NCBI GenBank assembly: GCA_000442015.1
Contig: KE560904.1
Span: 1-64,000, forward strand
From: Rozella allomycis CSF55
Taxonomy: Eukaryota
DNA: 64,000 bases
Reading direction: 5' to 3'
Each line of letters starts with the position of its first letter. The stretch's first letter is position 1. Shown here in pieces: positions 1-48,931 of this stretch. Made by a program: the position numbers and the translations under genes. The notes beneath the pieces were generated by a model. It made no database searches. It saw only the letters and a program-made list of their open reading frames with translations, and had not been told where the DNA came from.

Positions 1-134
1 TCATGAGTTAAGTATTTTTCCGACTTAATGATTCCTTGTTTTACCAGAACCAATACCAGGGTTTCGTAAAGACCTGCAAACCTTAAAATTTAGACCCTTG
101 TAAATAATTAAAAAAAGATACCCTTGTAAAAATC

Positions 135-2243
135 ATGAGCAAACAAGAGAACATGTTTAAGGATCAAATAAATGTTCCACGAGGCGAACGAGTTGATATA
201 TTCGATCCCCTGGCTTTGTTGAATTTTATGAATATGCAAATGATTGATGAAACTAAATTGTTCGTTCTATTTGGAGAGACGCGGAAGATTGAAATGTCAG
301 GACGAGAAGCAGCGATTGCACAGGCAGCAGAAAAGTTCAAAGTATTTGCAAATCCTGTTGGAAAAAGTAGAGAAGATAGGGCAATTCCAGTTGTGTCTGG
401 ATTGAGTGGAATTGGGAAGACTCGGTTGATGGAAGAATTTGAAACTATATTTGACATGGCAGGTGTAGGTCAACCGCGTTTTGGTGTTATTGTTTCTTAT
501 GAAGTTGGGCATAATCCTCAGCCAGTTGAGCAGAGTATGCGAATTGAGGCCTCATTTTCATGGAGATTGTTGTATCGGGTGTTTATAGAGGGAAATGGAG
601 TGGACTTTATAAAGTGGTTTGGAACATGTTTACCTGTTAATGGAGCTGGTTTGACTCTTGATACAGCCTTGGAAGTGATCCGAATGAAGGCTGAATCATT
701 GGGATTAATTGGCGAGAATGACGTGTTCCATATGTTTCTTGGAGTGGACAAGTATCATTATATCGAGGATGTTAAAGGAATTCCAGTCTCTCATGAGCCT
801 CTCTTGCAAGATTTGATCAACGCCATTAATGGTGTGGTGGCGTCGCCTGTTGATAACATTCGTATCTATCCGATGGGTGCTTGTAAAAACTTGTCTGTCG
901 TATCCATTCTCAGGACACAGTCAATTAGATTACCTATGTCCTTTCTAAGTGTCGCTGAAATGGAACGATCAATTGAGTCTATACCATGTGGTTTGAATCT
1001 TTTGAAGCAAGCCGCTGTGCGTAGACATTTGTTTTATTTGGGAGGAGTACCAAGATGGTTCACGCAATATATCTTGACGCTAGTGGACAAAGTATCAGAG
1101 AGCGTGGACAAGGTCCCAACAATTGAGCAAGCCAAAAAAGCGTTTCAGTGCACCGAGGCGCAATACATAAATGAATGGGGAAGGGTGAGAGAGAATGGCA
1201 GGCGCAGGCATTTGGAACAAATCGAGTTTATCAAACTTGCAGCATACTCCTTTTCTGGGTTAAAAGTTGTACTAAATTCTAAGGACATTGGAAATTTGAG
1301 TTGGGCACATCTTGAAGGCTCTGTGTGTTTGATTAATGACAATTGTATATCAATTCCGTATGCAATAGTTCGCAGAATTGCTGGCTACGACTCAATAGAT
1401 TTCACAGATAGGGCAGTTAAGTGCTTCATTGAATGTCTCAAAGGACTGGTCGAGACAGTGGACAAATTGATGTATGAAAAGTCACCATGGCAGCTTTGGG
1501 GAGTCTTTGGTGCCTATTTGCACGCCTTGCGCATTAATGCATTACTTATCATTGGCAAGGACACAGTGAAGGTAAGGGAGCTGTTTGAAGGGGCTTTGAT
1601 TAATGGATGTGACCAGGAAGTCAAGTTGAGGCCCATGCTAGTAATGGAAACAGAAGACAAGCTCTCATCGCAGTTGGGATCATCTGTCAAAAGAAAAGGG
1701 CGTGTTGATGAAGTGCACGATTACCTGCAAGAAGGGATAGTTGTAATCAACGGTGAAAATGGACAAGGAGTTGATCCATTCTTTGCTCTTGAATCAACAC
1801 AAGGTGGATACATTTTAATTAACGATCAACGGAAGCATGACTCTGGTGAACAAACGGTTACCAACTTGATACATAAGGCTCTAATCAAGCCAAACATTCA
1901 GCATGTCTCTGTCACCGTTATCCCATGTCTTTTTAGCTGTTTTTCTTCCTTTTCTCTTACCGAAATTCCAAAAAACTCAATTGTCGTGTCATATCCTCAA
2001 TCGAAAGCATATCATGGTTCGATGTGGATTCATCCAGCAGCTTCTCCGTATATCAATGTCAACAATACCTCAATCACTCATCTGAAAAATATTTTGAACG
2101 GTGCCGATGTTGCAACTGCTGCCAGACAGATTATTGCTAACAAAAGAAAATATGCATCAATTGTAGAATTGGATGAAGATTTGAAAAGATTTGGCGCCTG
2201 TATCAAAGAAGAAGAGAAGGAAAGAATTGTATTTGCTAAATAA
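135..2243 (+). CDS. Crinkler (CRN)-type effector/toxin module: P-loop NTPase + PD-(D/E)xK-like nuclease + C-terminal helix-hairpin-helix
   Basis: Intronless 702-aa ORF. Walker A VSGLSGIGKT; degenerate Walker B FLGVDKY; LGGVPRW motif; REase-like GVDPFFAL...LINDQRK; HhH-like PYINVN...ARQIIANKRKYASIVEL. No LFLAK/ubiquitin-like header is visible. Confidence 0.7.
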   Translation: MSKQENMFKDQINVPRGERVDIFDPLALLNFMNMQMIDETKLFVLFGETRKIEMSGREAAIAQAAEKFKVFANPVGKSREDRAIPVVSGLSGIGKTRLMEEFETIFDMAGVGQPRFGVIVSYEVGHNPQPVEQSMRIEASFSWRLLYRVFIEGNGVDFIKWFGTCLPVNGAGLTLDTALEVIRMKAESLGLIGENDVFHMFLGVDKYHYIEDVKGIPVSHEPLLQDLINAINGVVASPVDNIRIYPMGACKNLSVVSILRTQSIRLPMSFLSVAEMERSIESIPCGLNLLKQAAVRRHLFYLGGVPRWFTQYILTLVDKVSESVDKVPTIEQAKKAFQCTEAQYINEWGRVRENGRRRHLEQIEFIKLAAYSFSGLKVVLNSKDIGNLSWAHLEGSVCLINDNCISIPYAIVRRIAGYDSIDFTDRAVKCFIECLKGLVETVDKLMYEKSPWQLWGVFGAYLHALRINALLIIGKDTVKVRELFEGALINGCDQEVKLRPMLVMETEDKLSSQLGSSVKRKGRVDEVHDYLQEGIVVINGENGQGVDPFFALESTQGGYILINDQRKHDSGEQTVTNLIHKALIKPNIQHVSVTVIPCLFSCFSSFSLTEIPKNSIVVSYPQSKAYHGSMWIHPAASPYINVNNTSITHLKNILNGADVATAARQIIANKRKYASIVELDEDLKRFGACIKEEEKERIVFAK

Positions 2244-17594: not shown

Positions 17595-19629
<2,035 letters not shown>

Positions 19630-19811
19630 TCAAAAATATTTTTCATATAGGTTAAAAAAATAAATAAAAATCCAAAAAAATTAAAAAATAGAAAAAAGAT
19701 TAAATGATATTCCAAATAAATAAATTTTCGCTTCATCATCTTTTTATCTTCTTGGTTTTCCATATTAAATTCTAGTCTTGGCTATATAGCTAAACCCTGG
19801 TCGTCGTCACC

Positions 19812-20709
19812 ATGGACAGTCAAATAGTTGAAAACAACGCAGAGTCTTTCACAGACTCTATAAGATCAGAACTAAAATGTCCTATTTGCCTAGGAATTTT
19901 GAAAAACCCGTATACCACAATAGAGGTAGTTTTAGCTATTTTCTTTTTAAAAGTGTCTACATCGATTTTGTTACACTTGCATTGACACATCTTTACGTAA
20001 AAATAAACGTGAGTGCCCTACATGCCGAGCAAAGTGCCCTTCGAGGAGATCCCTTAGACCGGATTTTAGGTATTCCATGATCATCAACACGCTATTTCCT
20101 GATTTAAAGGCGTACGAAGATAATCAAGTAGAAGTATATAAAGGTTTTAATAGGATTCGTGGATGGTAATCGAGAATAAGGAAATCGCAATGAAATGGCG
20201 CCAGCATGTGTCATCTGTAAGTACATAATCTGATACTGATGTAGATCAGAAATAAAAGTTCTAAAAAGACTCCGAATAAATTTAATATAACCCCGAATAA
20301 GCGTGACAGGTCCCACGATATCGAGACACCGCCAAAGCCAAAGCACGTGAAGCATGAACTATGCTTGGAAATTAAACTTTCAACTTTTCCAAATGATAGA
20401 GTAACACCTTCACTTGAAAAATCATACCTTAAAACTATTGAAAGATGTCTTGGTAAGGATCATCTTGTTGTAATAACAAAGTTCGCCATGTACGCTCATA
20501 CTTGAGTGTGACGCTATTCAAAGGTGAAAACAAGGGTAATCCGATTATTATTTCTTAAGCCAGACTTGCAGATTTATTATAACAAGAATAATTCCTTCAA
20601 GAAGCTCTCTGATGACTTTATGATTTTAGATCTCGTTCAGTCGGGTGAAGTGCTTAGGAAAGATCTTTGTTTGTACTATTCTATTGTAGATAATATCATA
20701 AAACAATAA
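19812..20709 (+). CDS. RING1: RING1/RNF2 (Polycomb PRC1 E3 ligase) orthologue: C3HC4 RING + RAWUL; six exons, not recognisable in the ORF track
   Basis: Spliced [58 protein letters not shown]...INTLFPDLKAYEDNQ. C-terminus SYLKT...VRHVRSYLSVTL...QIYY...FKKLSDDF...KDLCLYYS. Confidence 0.88.
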
Positions 20710-20710
20710 T

Positions 20711-22495
20711 TTATTTATGTAATCTCGTTAATACTTTCTCCCATTCATCAATTACATTTTTCTCTCCCGATAAGCAGATTGCAAAATCCAAAGTCTTGAC
20801 GATGATTTCTATTCATTAAATAACTTTATTTTTACGATTTTCATTTTCTTTTGACGCAGTAAAGGGCTTTTGTAGTTTCCATTCTTTCCCTGCCTTTACA
20901 TTGTCACGCNCCTTTCCTGCCTTTAAATTGTCACGCGTGCCTCTGCATTGAAGAATCACATCTGTGAGTAGAATAAAGTAATAAACTTTATTCTTTTCTG
21001 TTCCTTTTTCATTAATGATGAAAATTTTTACTTGAATCATTTCTTGTATAATATTTTAAGCATAAAGCGCTTTCTATTAATAGTTTTCTGTGGGGTTTGA
21101 TGATCTATCTATGAGCCCCAACAATTACTTTTACTTGTTCCTCTTGCTTTAGTTTTAACGCTATTTCATAAAGTCTGGATGCATTTTCATATTCTCTCTT
21201 TTTGTCGTTAATTTCATTTGTTCTTTTTAGAAGCTCTTTTAATGCTTGCGTAAGATTTTGGTAGTCTTCGTGATCAACGTTGGTGCAGCTTATTAGGCTT
21301 TGTAATAACAGACAATATCTTGGGATTCTTTGAAAGGGCATCATCAAGTAAGAAATTAAATCAACTTGAGAATGCCTTAAATGTCTTTTCCTTTCTTCTG
21401 CAAAATCAAAAACATTCTTTCTTTTCAAACATTGGCGCCAAACATCAACAGCAGTTTCAAAATTATTTATATAACTTAAATACAGTGAAGTATAATTTGA
21501 GAATTGTTGAAAACATCTACCAAGCATTTTTTCTTCTGTTAATGGATCCTTTACTCTATTGTTACAGTTCAATTTACATGCATCAACTTTGGAAGGAAAT
21601 GTTCCTTGTGGAGTTTCAAAATGGAAGAAAAGTTTGAAAAAACTTGCTTGATTTCACTATTGTAATAATTGAAGTCATTTACGTTGGATAAAGAATCATT
21701 TTTCTTTTAGAAGATATCGACGAAATGGAAAATTCAAGAGGTTTCAAATAGAGCTGCATCACACACGAGAATTCAATTTACGTTATCGACAACCATCAAA
21801 TGGTCGACATACGTTTCTTCTGTAGAAATTATTTCTTTAATAACATGATGTCTCTTTAAAATTACTGTCTCTTCAATTTCCTCAATTTTGAAACTTGATT
21901 CTCGAGTATAAAGAACAGGCGTATTATCCACTGTATCAATCAAGCCCATTCGTTCCAATGACCATTTCATGTTTCTTAATGTTTCTGGTGAATCGCCTAT
22001 CGACTCTTCAGAAAAAGATTCAGTCTTTTCTGTAGATATTACGCTGCTCATGGACATTGTATGATTTCTATAAAGGGGAATAACTTTTACATCAATCGAC
22101 TCTGTTATTGGAGCAAATCTTTTCCATTTTTCACTCAACGATTCATTAGAGTATGTACTATTCATCGAGTCATTCATTGAAACATTTTTTGCATTTTCAG
22201 ATTCATAATATTTCTCTTCAACTTCAGATGTCACAAGGCCTTTCATATTCTGATCAATCAGTACATCATGATTAAATTCTTCAAAACCTTTTTCATGTTC
22301 CAATGAATCTTTATTAATTTTTGTATTTTTTGAAATATCTCCTAATTTACTCCACAAAGTAATCAAAAGAATTATACTGATTATGGTGTAATAGTCTACT
22401 ATTGAATAAGAAATTCTCAGTGCTATGACAAATGCTATCACCAAAATATAATCTCGCATTCTCTTGTGCCCTCTTTGGTTTCCAGGAGAATTCAT
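20711..22495 (-). CDS. RhoGEF (DH-PH) with hydrophobic N-terminus
   Basis: KRHHVIKEIISTEETYVDHL, YLSYINNF and LISYLMMPFQRIPRYCLLL (DH); PH-like C-terminus YYFILLTDVILQC. An N join lies at 20910. Confidence 0.85.
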
Positions 22496-23636: not shown

Positions 23637-26004
23637 ATGTCCTTCTTCGACTGCAACACCGGCCAATTCGTTGATTATTCTATAGGAGAGAAAATTATTG
23701 CTTCATCAAAAGTCTGCGACGGTTACCTGGATTGTCCTAACCTATCTGACGAGTCTTACTCTAATCAGTGTTCCGTTGATGCTAACACTTTAGTGATATT
23801 CTGGGCCGTAGTAGCTTCTTTGCTTATCGTATTTTGCACTTTTGCCTTTGCAAAATATCTTTTGATCCCAACGTACAAGCAACAAATAAGAGCTATGCAA
23901 CCCGTTTCTTACATAGTCGCATCATCAGGATGNTTTAATCGCATTTTGCACTTTTGCCTTTGCCAAGTATCTTTTGATACCAACGTACAAACAGCAAATA
24001 AGAGCTATGCAACCCGTTTCTTACATAGTCGCATCATCAGGATGTTTAATTGGATTGACTTTACCATATTTTCTACCAAGATATCCAAGTTTTCAAATTG
24101 TTCAAGCTGAGGTGTGGATCTCCATGATATCATTCTACGCGGTTAGTTCAAGTGTTTTAGGAAGACTGCATCGCCTATCTAAAATATTTCTTTCAAAAAC
24201 ACCCAGGAAAATGAAGTACTCAAATGCTGCTTTAATGTTTCGTATAGTATCCGGATTTGTTTTACTTGTGGTTTTGTTGATATTGTTTCTAGTTACTCAG
24301 TCATTAGGTGTTTTATATTCCATTGTTGCCTTTAACTTTATCGTTGTATTTGGAGCTATTTATTTGCTCTTTTTACTGAGAAAGATCAAAAATCGTTTTC
24401 ACAGGGGCTCGCAAGATTTGTTTTTAGTGTTAACCATTTTGATAAGCTTGGCATTTGGCCTTACAACAGTTCTTAGTGATCCATCCTCATTCAAGAATGG
24501 AGAAAGAAGAATGAGTACCATTATGGGTTCAACATTATCATTTCTATCCTTGATTTACAACACTGTTATCATTTTGGCGTCGGTTCGACTGGCGAAAGAA
24601 GAGTTTGATAGTAACTATACGACTGATTATGGTGTAATATCTCATTCAACTTATGCAAATAATCCTAACCCTAGGGAGGCCATTGCCAAATGTTTAAAAT
24701 CTATTAGCGAGGTGTTTGGTGGAGCCCGAGCTCCTTCAGTTCTTTTTGTAGGATTCACTGAAACGTATGACTTCAAAGAAATTCAAAAAGCTATTATTGA
24801 AGAAGCTGTTGATGGCACTCCGTTTATTGGGGTGTCTAGTTGTTTAGGGGTTATGTCGAATGCGTCAACATCTCCAATGAATGGTGCTCCTTACTGTGGT
24901 TTATGGGCCTTGCATGATCCCAACGGAATATACTTAACAGGCTTTGCAGCATGTAGAGAAAATACACACGAAGGATGGTTTGAATGCGGTGTTAATGCAG
25001 TGCAACATGCTCTTAGTCAATTGGACAAAGACAAGCTTCTCCCAGAGTTTGAGAAGAAGCCTGATTGTGTTTGGATGCATGCAACTCCCGGAGATGAAGA
25101 GAGAGTTATCGCTGGTATTCAGAGTATATTGGGAACAAAGGTGACAATTGCAGGAGGATCTGCAGCAGATAATACAATTTCTGGTCGTTGGGCTTCGATA
25201 TCACAACATGGTACTACTCAAAATGGAGTGAATGTTTGTTTATTATGGAGTAGTGTTGTCACGCAAAGTTTGTTTTATTGTGGTTACAAATCAACTAAAA
25301 CATCTGCAACTGTCACCAAAGCCGGGCATCGTAATATTATCGAACTGGATGGAAAACCAGCGGCAGAAGTTTACAATCAATGGACAGGAAATCTTTACGA
25401 GGAATACTTGAAAAAATCTGGAAATATTCTGGCGCAGTCTACATTCTTTCCATTAGGGCGCCAGGTTGGGGTAGACGTTGAAGATATGCCTTGTTATCAA
25501 ATGTTGCATCCTGAAACAATCAACACCAAGCACGAAGTTTCACTGTTTGCCGCGGTTAAAGAAGGAGAGAAGATTGAATTAATGAGAGGAACGGAAGCGT
25601 CTATTGTCAATGATATTAGCAAAGTTTGTCGAAGGTTGATGTTAAATAGTGGATTTTCACCTAATGAAATTAAAGGCGCGTTGGTCATTTATTGTGCTGG
25701 TTGTATGTTAGCATCAAAGGATCATATTGAAAAGGTGATTAAAAGTATGAATTCAACTTTAAATAATGCTCCGTTTATTGGTACTTTCAACTTTGGAGAA
25801 CAAGGTCGTTATCCTAATGGTGATGTTGGGCATGGGAATTTGATGTTTTCTGTGTTGTTGTTTTCAAGCAATCCCAAAGTAGTTCTCAGAAACCCCAAAG
25901 AAGGAGTTGTGATCAAGAAGAACTTATCAAAAAGTGGTACTCATTTATTGGATAGCGCACCTTTGCAGTCAATAAAATCAGCAAGAACTTTATCATCCAA
26001 ATAA
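23637..26004 (+). CDS. LDLa + class-C-like 7TM receptor + C-terminal FIST (FIST_N/FIST_C) domain; broken by an assembly join at N23933
   Basis: VCDGYLDCPNLSDE...C (LDLa); seven hydrophobic helices with IRAMQP and W...LGRLHRLSKIF; FIST motifs IGVSSCLG, TPGDEE, AGGSAADN, IIELDGKPAAEVY, YCAGC, FNFGEQG, HGNLMFS. Confidence 0.8.
23828..24043. other. Overlap duplication around single N (23933): allelic or paralogous contig join
   Basis: About 105 nt occur on both sides of the N, with mostly synonymous differences. Confidence 0.85.
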
Positions 26005-31285: not shown

Positions 31286-33937
31286 ATGCTAAGCTCTATT
31301 TGGCTTGGTTCCCTTTTATACTTTACGTGCATTAACGCACAGAACTCCACAAATGATGGAACGTTTAATATCTTGGCAAACTCTGGTGTATCTGCCATTC
31401 ATGGTGCTCCACTCTCAAATGGAAAGATTCTATTCCTTGGCAAACAAAGTAAGACAAATATATAGATGTAATACAAGGCAAATCAACATGGTTTAATTCA
31501 ATGAAGAAAACTTCGGCCATATTTGATACGTTGAATGGAACAGTCGAAACATTGGAAATGCCATCAGCTACATTTTACACTTCAGGCGGGTTTTTCCCTA
31601 ATGGGGATTTTATAAGTATTGGCGGCGATAAGGACAATAGACCTGATTCTTTTTCATTATCTGGTTATGATGGATTACGCCGATACAACTTTTGTCAAGA
31701 TAAATCAAACATACTTTGTTCATCGGAAAATTGGTATACTTCCTCGGAAAAAGTTCAAGATAGCCGTTGGTACTCGACTGTTGAAAATCTTCCAGATGGC
31801 CGTCTCTTCATTCTAGGAGGTAGCAGAGCGGAAGCACAAGTGCCTTCAAAATCTATTCTTTCAAATACTTTTGAAGTCTTTCCAGTTATTAACGAAGTTG
31901 ATTACAATACAATGTTCCCTTTCTTAGAGCATTCCTATCCTTATGTTCTTTATCCATTTGTTCACTTGTTGTCTAATAATAGGTTGTTCATTTTTGCTAA
32001 CCAAAATGCCACAATTCTTGATGCAAGAACTTATACCAAAATCAAATCACTTCCAAGACTTGATAATGATATTGTCATTAGAAATTATCCTTTCATGGCT
32101 TCGTCGGTTCTGTTGCCCTTGTATCCAGAAACAAATTATAACAATGAAGTATTGATAGTTGGAGGTGGAAGAAGAACAAAGATGGTTCAAAGGCTAGAGT
32201 CTCTCCCAAGCATGACTTTAGCAAAAAATTTGGAAACAGCTTCGGATCAATCTGCTCGCATCGACCTTGATGTTACAAGCCCCATATGGGAGATAGAAAA
32301 AATGCCGCAAAAGAGATTGATGGGAAATGCTATTTTAATGCCCGATGGAAAAGTTTTGGTTTTGAATGGTGCTCAAAGAGGTGTTGCTGGTTATGATTCG
32401 GTGGCTAGTAACTCATTGCTAAAACCAGATTTGTATGATCCAAAAGCCCCCAGTGGAAAAAGATGGAAGACCCTTGAAGCTATTGCCAATGTTAAAAGAG
32501 TTTATGGTTCTGTTGCCTTTCTACTTCCAGATGCTACAGTATTGATTGCAGGCAGTGATCCGCATTCTTCACCTTGGTCATGGGGAACCTATCCAACAGA
32601 ATATAGAGTGGAAATTTATCGTCCATATTATTTATATTTTAATGAACAAAGACCAAAGATTAATAGTATTCCAACGGATGTTGTACGGTATGGAGAAACA
32701 TTTGACATTGACGTGAATGGGCCATGGGATAGCGCATGCTTAATCAGATCGGGATTTGTTACTCACAGTGTTCAGATGGGTCAACGGTTTGTTGGTTTGG
32801 AAGTTATTGGGAATAACACCCTTTTGGCACCACCAAATTCGAAAATTGCCCCACCAGGAAAATATATGTTCTTTGTACTTAATAATGGAGCACCATCTGA
32901 AGCAATGTGGATCAATATTGGCAAGGCGTCGCTATTTGGGGGTAGTGTTTCCCACTTGCACAAAAGATTATGGCACATGATACAGTAATACTCTTTTCTC
33001 ACTTTCAAAAGGATTCACAGAGATAATGCAAGATATGTAGCCGCCTCGTGGATTAGGATGGCATATCACGATGCAGGAACATTTAGGGTCAATGACAAAC
33101 TAGGTGGTCCAAGAGCTAATTTATTACACCCAGAAGTTGCCAAATATCCAGAAAACAAAGGATTGTCGGATTTTGCAAGAACTGTTGCGATGATTGTCAG
33201 GGAATTTGAAGGGTTCAGCAGTATTTGTCTTTACATATTTTAACTAGTGGGTGACGCGATTTCAATGGCTGGTGTTACGGCCATCGAGTTTCTGGGAGGT
33301 CCAAGAATTTCCTGGAGAAGAGGTAGAGTTGATTTGAAATTAGGCGAAACTATTTTTGGGCCAGGAAGAATCCCAGATCCGTTTGAAAGAAACATAAATT
33401 CGGTACAAGAATCCTTTTTTGATATGGGGCTTTCCACAGTAGACATGGTAGCTTTAATGAGCATGAATTCAATTGGGTATGACAATTTTAGTTATATCAA
33501 TAGGGCTGTTCATCCAGACGTTCCTCAAGTAGAAGCTATTCTTTCATCTGTAAATTATCGTTTCAGCAATCAATATTACAAAGAATTAGTTGGACACATT
33601 TGGATTCCTGTAAAACATAAAGAATCAGGAAAAACTTACTATGTTGCTGATGATAATCCATTATTGACAAAGCTTCCAAGCGATATGTCTTTGCTAGATG
33701 ACCCAACAAGTTTAGCTCTCGTTCAAAAGTAAAGTTGCTAATTCATAATGCAATAGGTTCGCGGCTGATGAGTATTTCTACACAGAAACATTTGCTTCTG
33801 CATTTTCTAATCTTGTGCATCTTGGAATGAATATTGATTTTCCAGAGCAAGTGAGTGAACATCCACTAGTTCCTGAACCCAAAGAAATTGTGAATAACAC
33901 ACTTCAAATGAGATTTGGCAGTCAAAGAGTTAAATAA
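31286..33937 (+). CDS. Secreted glyoxal/galactose-oxidase-like (AA5) protein fused in frame to an APX/CcP-like heme peroxidase domain
   Basis: Signal peptide MLSSIWLGSLLYFTCINA; SGVSAIH, RWYST, YPFVHLL, RNYP, RSGFVTHSVQMGQR, APPGKYM. A 27-nt GT-AG intron (32985-33011) bridges to IRMAYHDAGTF...GGPRISWRRGRVD...LPSDMSLLDD...KFAADE. Confidence 0.8.
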
Positions 33938-34151: not shown

Positions 34152-36626
34152 ATGAGTCAAAATCAAAGTACACAGGCATTCTTGAGCCCAAGCAATACTG
34201 TTGTTAGTGATTTGGCCAAATTGGAAAGTAAGGAGAGTATGGTTAGAAGTTTGGATGACATTGAATCTATTAAAACCAGCAACCGAAGAAGGAAATTCTG
34301 GTCAAATTTGGTCAAAACTCGGACAAGAAAGTGTATTTTATGTAGTATTATATCGTTTATAATAATTTTGATTATATTCATACCGTTGACACTCTTTGTT
34401 ATTGCCCCATCAGTCGCGCAGAGCAGCATTGCGAATTCTAAACTTGTTATTCATAATTTGGATATAACCGACCCTAAAATGGATTCATTTCTTTTGTCAA
34501 TGAATGCAACTATGAGTGACACTGGTTCCTTTGATGCATTAATGAAAGAAAGTAATATGGAAATGTTATTTAAGGATAAATCATTTGGGCTATTCCCAAT
34601 GCCCGCAGTTTATATTGAGGCGGGCAAGTCAACGGCTTTATTGTTCAGCGCGCGGGTTAAGATAACGGATGAGCAAGTTTATCTACAATTTTCTAGAGAA
34701 ACAATAAATAGGAAAGACGTTTCTTCGAGCATGAAAGGAAAGATCTCTGTGACTGTAATGACACCAATAAAGGCATCATTGACATTGAATGATATTCCTT
34801 TTGAAAAGAGCATGACCCTTAACGGCATGGACGGACTGAAGGAAATGGAAATACTTGAAATAAATTTGCCAAAAGATTTAAGTGATGGAATTCAATTAGA
34901 AGTTGACGCGAGAATGAAAAATAGATCACCAATGTCGATGATTATGGGAGATGCATATTTTAATGTGTTTTATCAAGGGATATTGACAGCGAGAATGACT
35001 TCAAAAGATTTGAAGATGAAGAAGGGATGGAATAAAGTAAAAATGACGGGACAATTATTGCCTATATCTAAAGAAAATGAGCAAATAATGTCAAAGTTTT
35101 TTTCTGATTCAATGAATGGCATAGATTCCAATTTGGTGGTCAAAGGCGTTTCAACAGATTATCATGGGAAGCAAATACCCTGGCTCAACAAGACAATAAA
35201 CAATTTGAGCCTTTCTTCATTAGCCCCTGGAATGAAAAACTTTAATCCTATTTCTGGTATGGAAATAATAGAAATGTCTATTGAATTTGTTAAAAATGAT
35301 CCTTCATTGATGAGGGTAATGACAAAGATAAAAACAACATACCTTCTTCCTCCAACTTATAAATTCTCTACTAATCTTAAATACATTGATCAAAAAATGA
35401 ATATGATAACCAAAGATGGTATTCCATATGCATCCTTGAAGCTTCAATCAGAGAGTTGTAACGACCAGGGTCATTCAGTAGTGGCTTCGCTTGTTGGTGA
35501 TATGAGAATCAATGTTCCCAATAAAAGATATTTTGATGAGTTTTTAGAAAATCAAATGAAAGAAAAGAGTGTAGACTTTAGATTTACTGGATTGTCAACA
35601 GTTCATATGAATACAAAGATTGGAAATATGATAGTGAAGGATGTACCCTTGTCAGATACAAAACAAATGGATGGAATGGATATTTCAAATCAAAATCCAC
35701 TGATTGGAGAAATGATAATGACCAAAGGAACAGCTGAGAAACTCTTTATTGATACGACGGTAAAGATGACAAACCCTGCAAGCGTTACAGTTTCTGGTAT
35801 TGGTGATGTCAATTTTAATCTATTCTTTAATTACTCGAATGTTCAAGTTCAAATGGGCAGAATTAAGATTGTAAATTTCAACATGGCCAAAGGAATGAAT
35901 CAATTGAAAGTCGTCACTGAGCTTTGGGCAGGCAAAGAAGAAGATTTTCAATTTCAGCAAGCCAAGAAACAATTCTTTTCAAATTTTGCTTTGGGGTTGA
36001 AATCTGATGTTGTTCTCAAAGGCTACAATGAATCATCAACAGTGTTTGCAGTAAAGAACGCTTTGTCTAAAATTGAAATGCCATCGTTTGTGCCTGGGCA
36101 GATTATGGAAATAACAAAGAAATCTTACAGCTTTGTTTGCTTATCTCGTGCCCGCCTGTACGCATCCTTCGATCTCGCAAATCCCTTTGATGTTCCTCTA
36201 AGACTAAATGAAATAATCAACATGGAAATATCTTCACCAAAAGTCAAGTTTTTAAATGTTAAGATTCAAAATCAACTAATTCGAAATGTGTTCATCTATC
36301 CAAGACAAGTGGCTGAGAAACCAACGTATCTCCAAGTCCCAATTCTCAAAACAGTGTTAAACTCTCTTTTTAATTTGGATAATAGTACCTCATCTGATTC
36401 TAATGGCNATTTGGATAATAGTACCTCATCCGATTCTAATGGCTCCCATTCCCGTTCTTTGCCTGATCTGTCTCATTTTAATGTAAAAGGAACTGTCAGG
36501 ATCTCTCTTGGTCATTTTCCAATCACTCTGAACATTACACAATCAAATGTTCCAAATGATATGATTAATCGATGTCCTCCTGAAGAACTGATTGAACCTC
36601 CCACTTTTGATCCCAAAGATGATTAA
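34152..36626 (+). CDS. Single-pass membrane protein with repeated DUF3712 (Tag1-like) beta-rich units
   Basis: Intronless. One TM followed by APSVAQSSIANSKL; repeated motifs IPFEKSMTLNGMDGL / VPLSDTKQMDGMD and NRSPMSM / NPASVTV. An N join lies at 36408. Confidence 0.7.
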   Translation: MSQNQSTQAFLSPSNTVVSDLAKLESKESMVRSLDDIESIKTSNRRRKFWSNLVKTRTRKCILCSIISFIIILIIFIPLTLFVIAPSVAQSSIANSKLVIHNLDITDPKMDSFLLSMNATMSDTGSFDALMKESNMEMLFKDKSFGLFPMPAVYIEAGKSTALLFSARVKITDEQVYLQFSRETINRKDVSSSMKGKISVTVMTPIKASLTLNDIPFEKSMTLNGMDGLKEMEILEINLPKDLSDGIQLEVDARMKNRSPMSMIMGDAYFNVFYQGILTARMTSKDLKMKKGWNKVKMTGQLLPISKENEQIMSKFFSDSMNGIDSNLVVKGVSTDYHGKQIPWLNKTINNLSLSSLAPGMKNFNPISGMEIIEMSIEFVKNDPSLMRVMTKIKTTYLLPPTYKFSTNLKYIDQKMNMITKDGIPYASLKLQSESCNDQGHSVVASLVGDMRINVPNKRYFDEFLENQMKEKSVDFRFTGLSTVHMNTKIGNMIVKDVPLSDTKQMDGMDISNQNPLIGEMIMTKGTAEKLFIDTTVKMTNPASVTVSGIGDVNFNLFFNYSNVQVQMGRIKIVNFNMAKGMNQLKVVTELWAGKEEDFQFQQAKKQFFSNFALGLKSDVVLKGYNESSTVFAVKNALSKIEMPSFVPGQIMEITKKSYSFVCLSRARLYASFDLANPFDVPLRLNEIINMEISSPKVKFLNVKIQNQLIRNVFIYPRQVAEKPTYLQVPILKTVLNSLFNLDNSTSSDSNGXLDNSTSSDSNGSHSRSLPDLSHFNVKGTVRISLGHFPITLNITQSNVPNDMINRCPPEELIEPPTFDPKDD

Positions 36627-47472: not shown

Positions 47473-48876
47473 TTAGTTTATTAAGTAACACAGTGAGAAT
47501 AGGATGAGACTGATGATGCTGGCAATTGAATTCTGGCTAGCGTTTGAAGTAAGATAGCCATCCATACCAAGGTGGGCGTTTCCAGCTTCTTGGATTGAAC
47601 CAGACACATACTCATCTGCCTGCTTGGGTGCAGCATCGCTTGAATCTTGATCTTGCTTTTTGACAGTTTTAGGCTTCAATCCTTTGTCTGCTGATTCACT
47701 GTCACTAGAATACATTTTATCGCCATCTTCTGCTTCTTCAGAATCGTCGCCTTCTTCGTTTTCGTTTTCAGATGACCCATACTCTTGTTCATCGTCGTAG
47801 GTGGACTCATCCTCATCTCCATCCTCCGCTTCATCCTCGCCTTCATTTTGAGTTGAACCTTGATCTTCATCTTCCTCTGTTGCAGAAGTGTCTTCTTCAT
47901 CTGCATTTTCAGATGACTCATCGTTTTCGTCATCCTCCTCGTAAGTCGCCCCTTCATCGTCTTCGCTTTCACTTTCAGGAGACTCTTCATTTGTTTCGTC
48001 GTCTGTTGAATATTCGCCGACGTCATGTTGTGAAGCACCTTCATCTTGCTCGATTTCCTCCGTAGAATATTCACTCGCATCGTTTTCTTCGTCCTCCTCG
48101 TCAGATAGTTCTTCGTCACCTACTTCATCATCTTCAGTTTGAGAATTGTTATCTGCTTCTTCTGGTTTTGTTGAATATTCACCCAAGTCATTTTGAGATG
48201 AACCTTGGCCTTGTTCGTCTTCTTCCGGCTCTGTGGAATATTCACCCGCGTCATTTTGAGAAGAACCTTGATCTTGTTCGTCTTCTTCCGGCTTCACGTC
48301 GTTTTGAGTAGCGCCTTGGTCTTGCTCATTTTCCTCTGTAGAATATTCACCCGCGTCGTTTTGAGTAGCACCTTGATCTTGTTCATTTTCCTCTGTAGAA
48401 TATTCACCCGCGTCGTTTTGAGTAGCGCCTTGATCTTGCTCATTTTCCTCTGGTTTTGTACCTGCGTCATTTTGAGTAGCGCCTTGGTCTTGTTCATTTT
48501 CTTCTGGTTGTGTAGCATATTCTCCAGCATCATGTTGAGATGAACCTTGATTGTCTTCTTCGCTGGCCTGTTCGTTGCCAGCATGTTCATATTGAGATGA
48601 ACCGGTTGATTGTTCATCCATAGTAGTTTCGGCTTGAGTAGGATTTGCCAGCTCCTCCTCTTCTTCGTCGTTTTCAGAGTCAGTTGAGTAGTGAGATTGA
48701 ACAGGATTTGATTCACTATCGTCAGTGACATCGGACTGATATTGACCAGGAGCGTCTGTATCAACAGAACCGGTGTTTGCAAGATCGCCTTGATAATTGC
48801 CGGTGTTGTGCGCATCCGCTACTACAAACAATAGTGCAATACTTATTAAAACACAAAAGTATGTCGACTTTAACAT
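47473..48876 (-). CDS. Secreted, probably GPI-anchored, extremely acidic repeat protein
   Basis: Intronless 467-aa ORF; N-terminal signal peptide; D/E/Q/N-rich body; small residues then a hydrophobic C-terminal tail (SNASQNSIASIISLILFSLCYLIN). Confidence 0.75.
   Translation of the reverse strand: MLKSTYFCVLISIALLFVVADAHNTGNYQGDLANTGSVDTDAPGQYQSDVTDDSESNPVQSHYSTDSENDEEEEELANPTQAETTMDEQSTGSSQYEHAGNEQASEEDNQGSSQHDAGEYATQPEENEQDQGATQNDAGTKPEENEQDQGATQNDAGEYSTEENEQDQGATQNDAGEYSTEENEQDQGATQNDVKPEEDEQDQGSSQNDAGEYSTEPEEDEQGQGSSQNDLGEYSTKPEEADNNSQTEDDEVGDEELSDEEDEENDASEYSTEEIEQDEGASQHDVGEYSTDDETNEESPESESEDDEGATYEEDDENDESSENADEEDTSATEEDEDQGSTQNEGEDEAEDGDEDESTYDDEQEYGSSENENEEGDDSEEAEDGDKMYSSDSESADKGLKPKTVKKQDQDSSDAAPKQADEYVSGSIQEAGNAHLGMDGYLTSNASQNSIASIISLILFSLCYLIN
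48165..48560 (-). repeat. Coding tandem repeat, ~51-63 nt units encoding (P)EENEQDQGATQNDAGEYST variants
   Basis: About seven imperfect units are visible in both the DNA and the translation. Confidence 0.9.
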
Positions 48877-48931
48877 GTGACTGAAAGGGGTAATGCGTCA
48901 AAATACTTAAAATAGAATGAACCAATCAAAG

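Follow-up and report, generated by a model that had tools for sequence, protein, structure and literature searches.

A corrected RING1 gene model and a probable PCGF gene in the genome of Rozella allomycis

Results

Gene model of the RING1 locus

The window (the whole 64,000-nucleotide stretch of Rozella allomycis CSF55 contig KE560904.1 analysed here) contains on its + strand six short exons that form a single open frame of 252 aa, from an ATG at 19812 to a stop codon ending at 20709 (Table 1). All five introns have GTA..AG borders, and the first separates a Glu from the third zinc-binding Cys of the RING motif. The original prediction, made from the letters alone, had described six short exons at 19812-20709, hidden from the open reading frame track in a genome of the fungal lineage, and each of these points was borne out: the exons splice into one frame, none forms an ORF of 100 aa, the genome is that of Rozella allomycis, and the RING match is beyond chance, as exon 2 alone drew 28 matches from the PDB, of which the best 10, at 52-65 bits, were RING2 chains. 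The RING motifs that were quoted (ECLHRFC, ECPTCR, SRRSLRPD) are present in the spliced protein. The motif LYYS is also present, at 20671-20682, but it is not the end of the protein, since 8 residues follow.

Table 1. Coordinates of the RING1 gene in the window and of related genes on other contigs of the Rozella genome.
Feature	Location	Strand	Description
RING1 exon 1	19812..19925	+	Start codon, pre-RING helix, zinc-binding Cys 1-2, I53 equivalent; N-terminal arm motif lacking
RING1 intron 1	19926..19953	+	28 nt, phase 0; fixed by homology; spliced otherwise in the public model, which goes out of frame
RING1 exon 2	19954..20127	+	Six remaining zinc ligands, R81/R91/K93/R97/R98 equivalents, post-RING dimerisation helix
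RING1 intron 2	20128..20153	+	26 nt; not fixed by homology
RING1 exon 3	20154..20216	+	Linker; borders not fixed by homology
RING1 intron 3	20217..20244	+	28 nt; not fixed by homology
RING1 exon 4	20245..20452	+	Basic linker, then RAWUL strands 1-2
RING1 intron 4	20453..20481	+	29 nt, phase 1; fixed by homology
RING1 exon 5	20482..20535	+	RAWUL helix; left out of the public model
RING1 intron 5	20536..20563	+	28 nt, phase 1; fixed by homology
RING1 exon 6	20564..20709	+	Remaining RAWUL, final strand 20671-20682, stop codon
Probable PCGF gene (L071)	G000:C837:29472-30187	-	Five exons; introns 29, 28, 27, 26 nt
EZH2-like gene (L150)	G000:C314:21900-23800		CXC and SET domains
ASXH (DEUBAD) gene (L094)	G000:C253:9233-9520		41.7 bits vs Pfam cut-off 25.8
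Third UCH gene (L057-L059)	G000:C417:40381-41100		Assembly gap within gene

We enumerated 144 complete splice forms (GTA donors, introns of 18-60 nt, at most five introns) and ranked them by their RING and RAWUL profile scores. Introns 1, 4 and 5 were common to the top 12 forms, and only introns 2 and 3, both in the linker, varied. These two were picked by length, and intron 2 is the same in the public model; an alternative donor six bases later, at 20134, would give a 20-nt intron and a protein of 254 aa. The basic linker of exon 4 may serve as a nuclear localisation signal. Intron density in Rozella is given as 2.5 per kb in the accessible text of PMC8476143, and the assembly measures 11.9 Mb. 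The only match of sequencing-run contigs was to an A-rich stretch between genes, which has no bearing either way on expression.

The locus is present in public databases as O9G_001992 / EPZ34861.1 of Rozella allomycis, the top protein match, with a second record RKP21235.1. EPZ34861.1 has 191 aa and a start and stop identical to ours; however, it runs out of frame after residue 33 and returns to frame only at the seventh zinc ligand, whereby four of the eight ligands are gone, and it has no exon 5, little of exon 3 and an incomplete exon 6. Against a RING1 RING profile the six-exon model scored 122 bits and the public model 62.8 bits; against a RAWUL profile the scores were 31.9 and 5.2 bits, respectively. 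EPZ34861.1 and RKP21235.1 show two differences; one of these, a single site, falls on a third codon position of the six-exon frame and is silent there. Judged from the sequence, the public 191-aa model is mis-spliced, with loss of zinc ligands and of the RAWUL core, and the six-exon model brings both back.

Directly 5' of this gene lies a poly(A) polymerase gene (window 17595-19450, +; Pfam PAP_central and PAP_RNA-bind) with similar short introns. On its 3' side a convergent gene (21105-22495, -) matches the beginning of a RhoGEF domain at E 0.045. At 20885-20940 and near 36500, and likewise in locus L003, a short stretch is duplicated in tandem with one N where the copies join; these are probably scaffolding artefacts.

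Family membership and key residues

In the comparison of exon 2 with the PDB, the next family after RING2 reached 29.7 bits, and BMI1 19.9 bits. A protein search with the same exon matched 269 of 271 candidates; of these 269, 120 were listed, and wherever a listed name was informative it was RING1, RING2 or RNF1/2. The whole protein scored 122 bits with the RING1 profile versus 52 bits with a PCGF profile for which 29 of 52 PCGF frames from metagenomes were used. A two-family tree of 37 rows placed it on the RING1 side (split 100/99), and a 46-row tree that included nine of eleven outgroup RINGs, two being left out, placed it in the RING1 group (87/100); an AU test did not reject a position on the central branch (p 0.26). 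The phylogeny thus agrees with the RING1/RNF2 identity first proposed, as do the PDB and protein matches and the RAWUL profiles described below.

All eight C3HC4 zinc ligands are present in the six-exon protein (positions 51, 54, 67, 69, 72, 75, 87 and 90). In RING1B numbering, I53, L55, R81, P88, R91, K93 and R98 are retained, with the substitutions K97R and D56G. According to the available parts of de Potter et al. 2023 (PMC10638273), I53 and D56 bind the E2 and K97 and R98 the nucleosome; I53, K97 and R98 are named there as residues of catalytic function, D56 being found in animals only, and Arabidopsis RING1, which is active on H2A, has G56. An N-terminal arm motif is found in 20 of the 24 homologues that could be scored (of 33) and is lacking in the Rozella protein, as it is in two plant sequences, and no upstream exon encoding it was found in 19230-19900. 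The N-terminal arm of RING1 wraps the PCGF subunit.

The predicted RAWUL domain is seen in the spliced protein. Pfam RAWUL (PF16207) gave no match on single unspliced exons and no candidates in a genome scan whose control gave no signal anywhere. A profile of 32 homologues selected on the RING alone, however, gave 31.9 bits on the spliced model versus 11.6 for the top of 1000 shuffles, and three RAWUL profiles gave 34.4, 21.2 and 40.7 bits, each reached by none of 2000 shuffles. The proposed RAWUL match therefore failed with Pfam on unspliced DNA and held with homologue-built profiles on the spliced model. Taken together, the sequence comparisons leave hardly any doubt that the window gene is the RING1/RNF2 orthologue of Rozella allomycis, encoding the PRC1 catalytic subunit, and that it is intact once five short introns are spliced.

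A candidate PCGF partner

A second gene of interest lies on contig C837 and was found by reading all 49 zf-C3HC4_2 matches in the genome, among which it ranked 44; in the window, RING1 exon 1 matches the same Pfam family at E 0.006. A further in-frame ATG is located 8 codons upstream of the modelled start. The public record of the C837 gene (EPZ32088.1 / RKP17138.1) has 174 aa and is named merely 'RING-type'. EPZ32088.1 shares its first three introns with our model, and its final intron is over-long and removes the RAWUL core.

Several other routes to a PCGF gene were tried and rejected. With the RING1 protein as query, the only matches besides the window gene were three unrelated RINGs, and a metagenomic PCGF query recovered nothing but the window gene. 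In the C837 gene the motif is interrupted by an intron, and the gene therefore escaped two DNA patterns, which gave 15 and 19 matches. On contig C500 a RING1-like pattern hit was dismissed as an antisense chance match, and the PCGF pattern gave 0 matches in viral contigs.

The RING of the C837 protein possesses all zinc ligands and a PCGF-type RING helix, and scored 71 bits with the PCGF profile versus 45 bits with the RING1 profile. Its best single-domain PDB matches were PCGF1 (53 bits), BMI1 (45), PCGF6 (43), RING2 (42.5) and RNF4 (37). In the two-family tree it fell on the PCGF side on a long branch, and its median tree distance was 2.48 to PCGF versus 4.0 to RING1. A tree with outgroup RINGs did not resolve its PCGF position, and an AU test did not reject placement outside PCGF (p 0.26). 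When the protein or its last exon served as query, the matches were confined to its own public record and a single repetitive artefact.

RAWUL is the sole Pfam match of the last exon, at E 0.044 and 14.7 bits against a cut-off of 33.5. Two profiles, the second a combined one, gave 15.0 and 19.7 bits, which none of 2000 shuffles equalled; a PCGF-only profile gave 5.7 bits, a score reached by 27 of 2000 shuffles. A single-sequence fold of the exon was uninformative (pLDDT 50, best Z 5.0, RAWUL not listed, some PB1 at Z 2.9-3.7), and a MAFFT alignment with PCGF RAWULs was set aside as its second half was out of register. We consider it very probable from these comparisons that the C837 gene is a RING and RAWUL-bearing PCGF gene, its RING being clearly PCGF-like and its RAWUL weak.

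Prediction of a complex between RING1, entered as two exon chains, and the C837 protein gave a score of 0.46 versus 0.01 for the best control, with contacts agreeing to at least 84% between runs and a partner pLDDT of at least 69. This score should be read with some caution, since in the benchmark values of 0.60 or below were seen in 5 of 78 solved complexes and in all 4 passing mismatches of 180, and since solved RING1B-BMI1 structures may permit a pass by likeness.

Other Polycomb components

The genome contains three full H2A genes, all with the C-terminal lysine pair (PKK tail). K118, K119 and six acidic-patch residues are intact in the two of these that were checked, so that the K119 conservation asked of Rozella H2A is present. 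The lysines permit the mark and do not indicate it; H2A K119 is widely conserved, in yeasts without PRC1 as well. A short diverged exon resembling an H2A C-terminus (G000:C861:65743-65793, L008; E 0.06), also with a terminal lysine pair, is perhaps an H2A variant.

For PRC2, we found an EZH2-like gene whose frame continues upstream of the start in the published sequence; EED, RBBP and two SUZ12 fragments are Rozella entries in Supplementary Data 8 of de Potter et al. 2023 (PMC10638273), as far as that material was available. An ASXH gene scored well above the Pfam cut-off. There are three UCH genes, one of which, on contig C559, is UCHL5-like. The third, on C417, gave 53 and 57 bits with UCHL5 versus 49 and 36-40 with BAP1/Calypso, one exon differing by a small margin only. 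From its sequence it appears nearer to UCHL5 than to BAP1 and would be a second UCHL5-like paralogue, and a clear BAP1 was not found among the three UCH genes.

RYBP/YAF2 (PF17219) gave 0 candidates in a six-frame genome scan that ignored introns, which does not imply absence; loss of RYBP in fungi is inferred in the accessible text of de Potter et al. 2023 (PMC10638273). The CBX Pc-box (PF17218) likewise gave 0 candidates in a genome scan whose control gave no signal, so that absence is again not implied, and in the same source the Pc-box is not found outside animals. The genome search proposed with the original prediction thus yielded a probable PCGF gene, an ASXH gene and EZH2, and neither a RYBP match nor a clear BAP1.

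Discussion

The presence of PRC1 and RING1 in Rozella is already published, and the novelty that had been thought possible for this locus does not hold. De Potter et al. 2023 (PMC10638273), in the parts available, report PRC1, as 'either RING1 or PCGF', for Rozella allomycis as well as Gonapodya prolifera, with confirmation of PRC1 in Spizellomyces. The file OG_RING.fa of their Supplementary Data 8 holds ROZALL004212, a high-confidence RING1 orthologue, which is the same 191-aa sequence as EPZ34861.1; locus, start and stop are those of our gene, from which it differs by a broken RING and a truncated RAWUL. The six Rozella entries seen in Data 8 are EED, EZH, RBBP, RING1 and the two SUZ12 fragments, with no PCGF, and the PCGF alignment seen from the same paper holds no Rozella sequence. 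In their BLAST table ROZALL001245 matches BMI1 with an E value of 3e-5 over subject range 20-90, and the stated BLAST default is 1e-5. We infer from these parts of the paper that ROZALL001245 is the C837 protein, missed just short of that default. Our literature search, which most subscription journals lay beyond, found no further paper joining Rozella and PRC1.

What is added here is a modest, testable increment, namely corrected RING1 splicing and an unlisted probable PCGF gene. The published RING1 sequence looks catalytically dead, and in the corrected gene both RING and RAWUL are intact. The PCGF partner would move Rozella from a one-subunit case to a species with PRC2 and what is probably a complete PRC1 core, and both complexes would thereby be placed at the base of fungi. 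Of the minimal PRC1/H2A-ubiquitin system originally predicted, the genetic parts are present and more complete than published, whereas activity on H2A we only infer.

Compared with human RING1B/RNF2 in the RING1B-BMI1 complex (PDB 2ckl, 4r8p, 9dby), the Rozella protein has the same order of RING, flanking helices and C-terminal RAWUL, and I53, R81, R91, K93 and R98 are all present. It differs in length (252 vs 336 aa), in lacking the N-terminal arm, and in D56G and K97R; also unlike the human system, no CBX or RYBP match was found in the Rozella genome. Plant RING1a/b share the Gly at 56 and, in the sequences inspected, the missing arm motif; the Rozella protein is much shorter and falls outside the plant sequences in trees. 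Within the entries seen from de Potter et al., Spizellomyces punctatus is, like Rozella, an early-branching fungus with RING1 (SPIPUN007233) and PCGF (SPIPUN008085), and its further entries EZH, EED and SUZ12 set a precedent for a full core with PRC2 in a fungus. Gonapodya prolifera, also early-branching, has PCGF and a putative RING1. Both RING1 entries display an arm-like motif by eye, which Rozella RING1 lacks, and Rozella branches deeper than either, beside Microsporidia.

We hypothesize that RING1 and the C837 protein act as a minimal RING1-PCGF H2A ubiquitin ligase, the pair working through H2A mono-ubiquitination, and assign this reading a probability of roughly 0.55 by analogy with human RING1B-BMI1. 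According to this hypothesis the two proteins would form a heterodimer held by the RING-flanking helices, with a ubiquitin-loaded E2 bound on the RING1 side via the I53/R91 surface. The R97/R98 pair would dock onto the acidic patch of H2A-H2B, and one ubiquitin would be added to H2A K118/K119. Both RAWUL domains would bind targeting partners, the scans for RYBP and CBX having given no match. The genome also encodes PRC2. The pairing step by itself, RING to RING, is in our judgment probable.

The readings that compete with this hypothesis concern the product, the partner and the gene itself. The pair could form without writing a bulk H2A mark, serving instead as a chromatin scaffold or ubiquitinating other substrates independently of PRC2. 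This we regard as unlikely, even though it fits the missing RYBP and CBX matches, the lack of a clear BAP1, and the statement in the accessible text of de Potter et al. 2023 (PMC10638273) that H2AK119ub is undetected outside holozoans and Arabidopsis; those authors themselves raise such a reading. A proteomic survey (bioRxiv 10.1101/2021.11.30.470311, as far as seen) reports the mark in some holozoans only, with Spizellomyces among the cultures, but its authors caution that ubiquitination is hard to detect and is missed by mass spectrometry without enrichment. Moreover, residues for binding the E2 and the acidic patch are retained in a fast-evolving RING1 gene, and K118/K119 and the acidic patch of H2A are intact.

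Alternatively, RING1 might act without the C837 protein, as a homodimer or with another RING, the C837 gene being a PCGF in decay or put to another use, or else a RING1 paralogue that has diverged, and the AU test and the outgroup tree leave room for this. We find this improbable given a frame that is open over five exons with every zinc ligand and a PCGF-type helix, given the nearness to PCGF in both profile scores and median tree distances, and given the complex prediction, which lends weak structural support to the pair. The different splicing of the public models could also be taken to mean that the six-exon model is over-read and that the RING1 locus is foreign DNA or a relic without expression. 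Such a reading is very improbable: the intron sizes, 26-29 nt, are like those of the three introns common to the public and present C837 models and agree with the ~30 nt given for Rozella introns in the available part of PMC6349667; the gene is in both public Rozella records; its coding GC is 0.37, against 0.36-0.39 in five neighbouring frames; every invariant residue is retained; and the Allomyces entries seen in Data 8 include neither RING1 nor PCGF.

A wider form of the minimal-ligase hypothesis can be stated, and we hold it as doubtful: a two-subunit PRC1, its PCGF concealed by faulty annotation, would write H2AK119ub without RYBP or CBX, beside PRC2, and the ASXH protein together with the second UCHL5-like enzyme would erase it. 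If true, H2AK119ub would for the first time be known from the fungal lineage, of which Rozella, a reduced endoparasite, is the deepest branch, and the pair would be the smallest natural PRC1 for reconstitution; the 'RING1-only' and 'PCGF-only' species of published profiles would then be annotation artefacts in part. The two small proteins also offer material for testing whether a PRC1 from neither animals nor plants ubiquitinates H2A.

Additional observations

Several other frames of the window deserve mention. An intron-free frame of 711 aa at 108-2243 (+) has a P-loop-like motif and a higher GC content (0.41), and presumably resembles a Crinkler-related protein. The N-terminal half of a 695-aa frame at 23917-26004 (+) is membrane-spanning, and we take its C-terminal half to be FIST-like; the FIST domain is better known from bacteria. 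A frame of 511 aa at 31453-32988 (+) is, we assume, glyoxal/galactose oxidase-like. On contig C639 (L002:1901-2656, -) we noted what we take to be a thymidine kinase-like frame adjoining a PA-RING ligase gene. Finally, a 474-aa acidic repeat protein at window 47473-48897 (-) has a signal-peptide-like start and a hydrophobic end, and a similar one lies antisense in L009 on contig C500; both are possible surface proteins.
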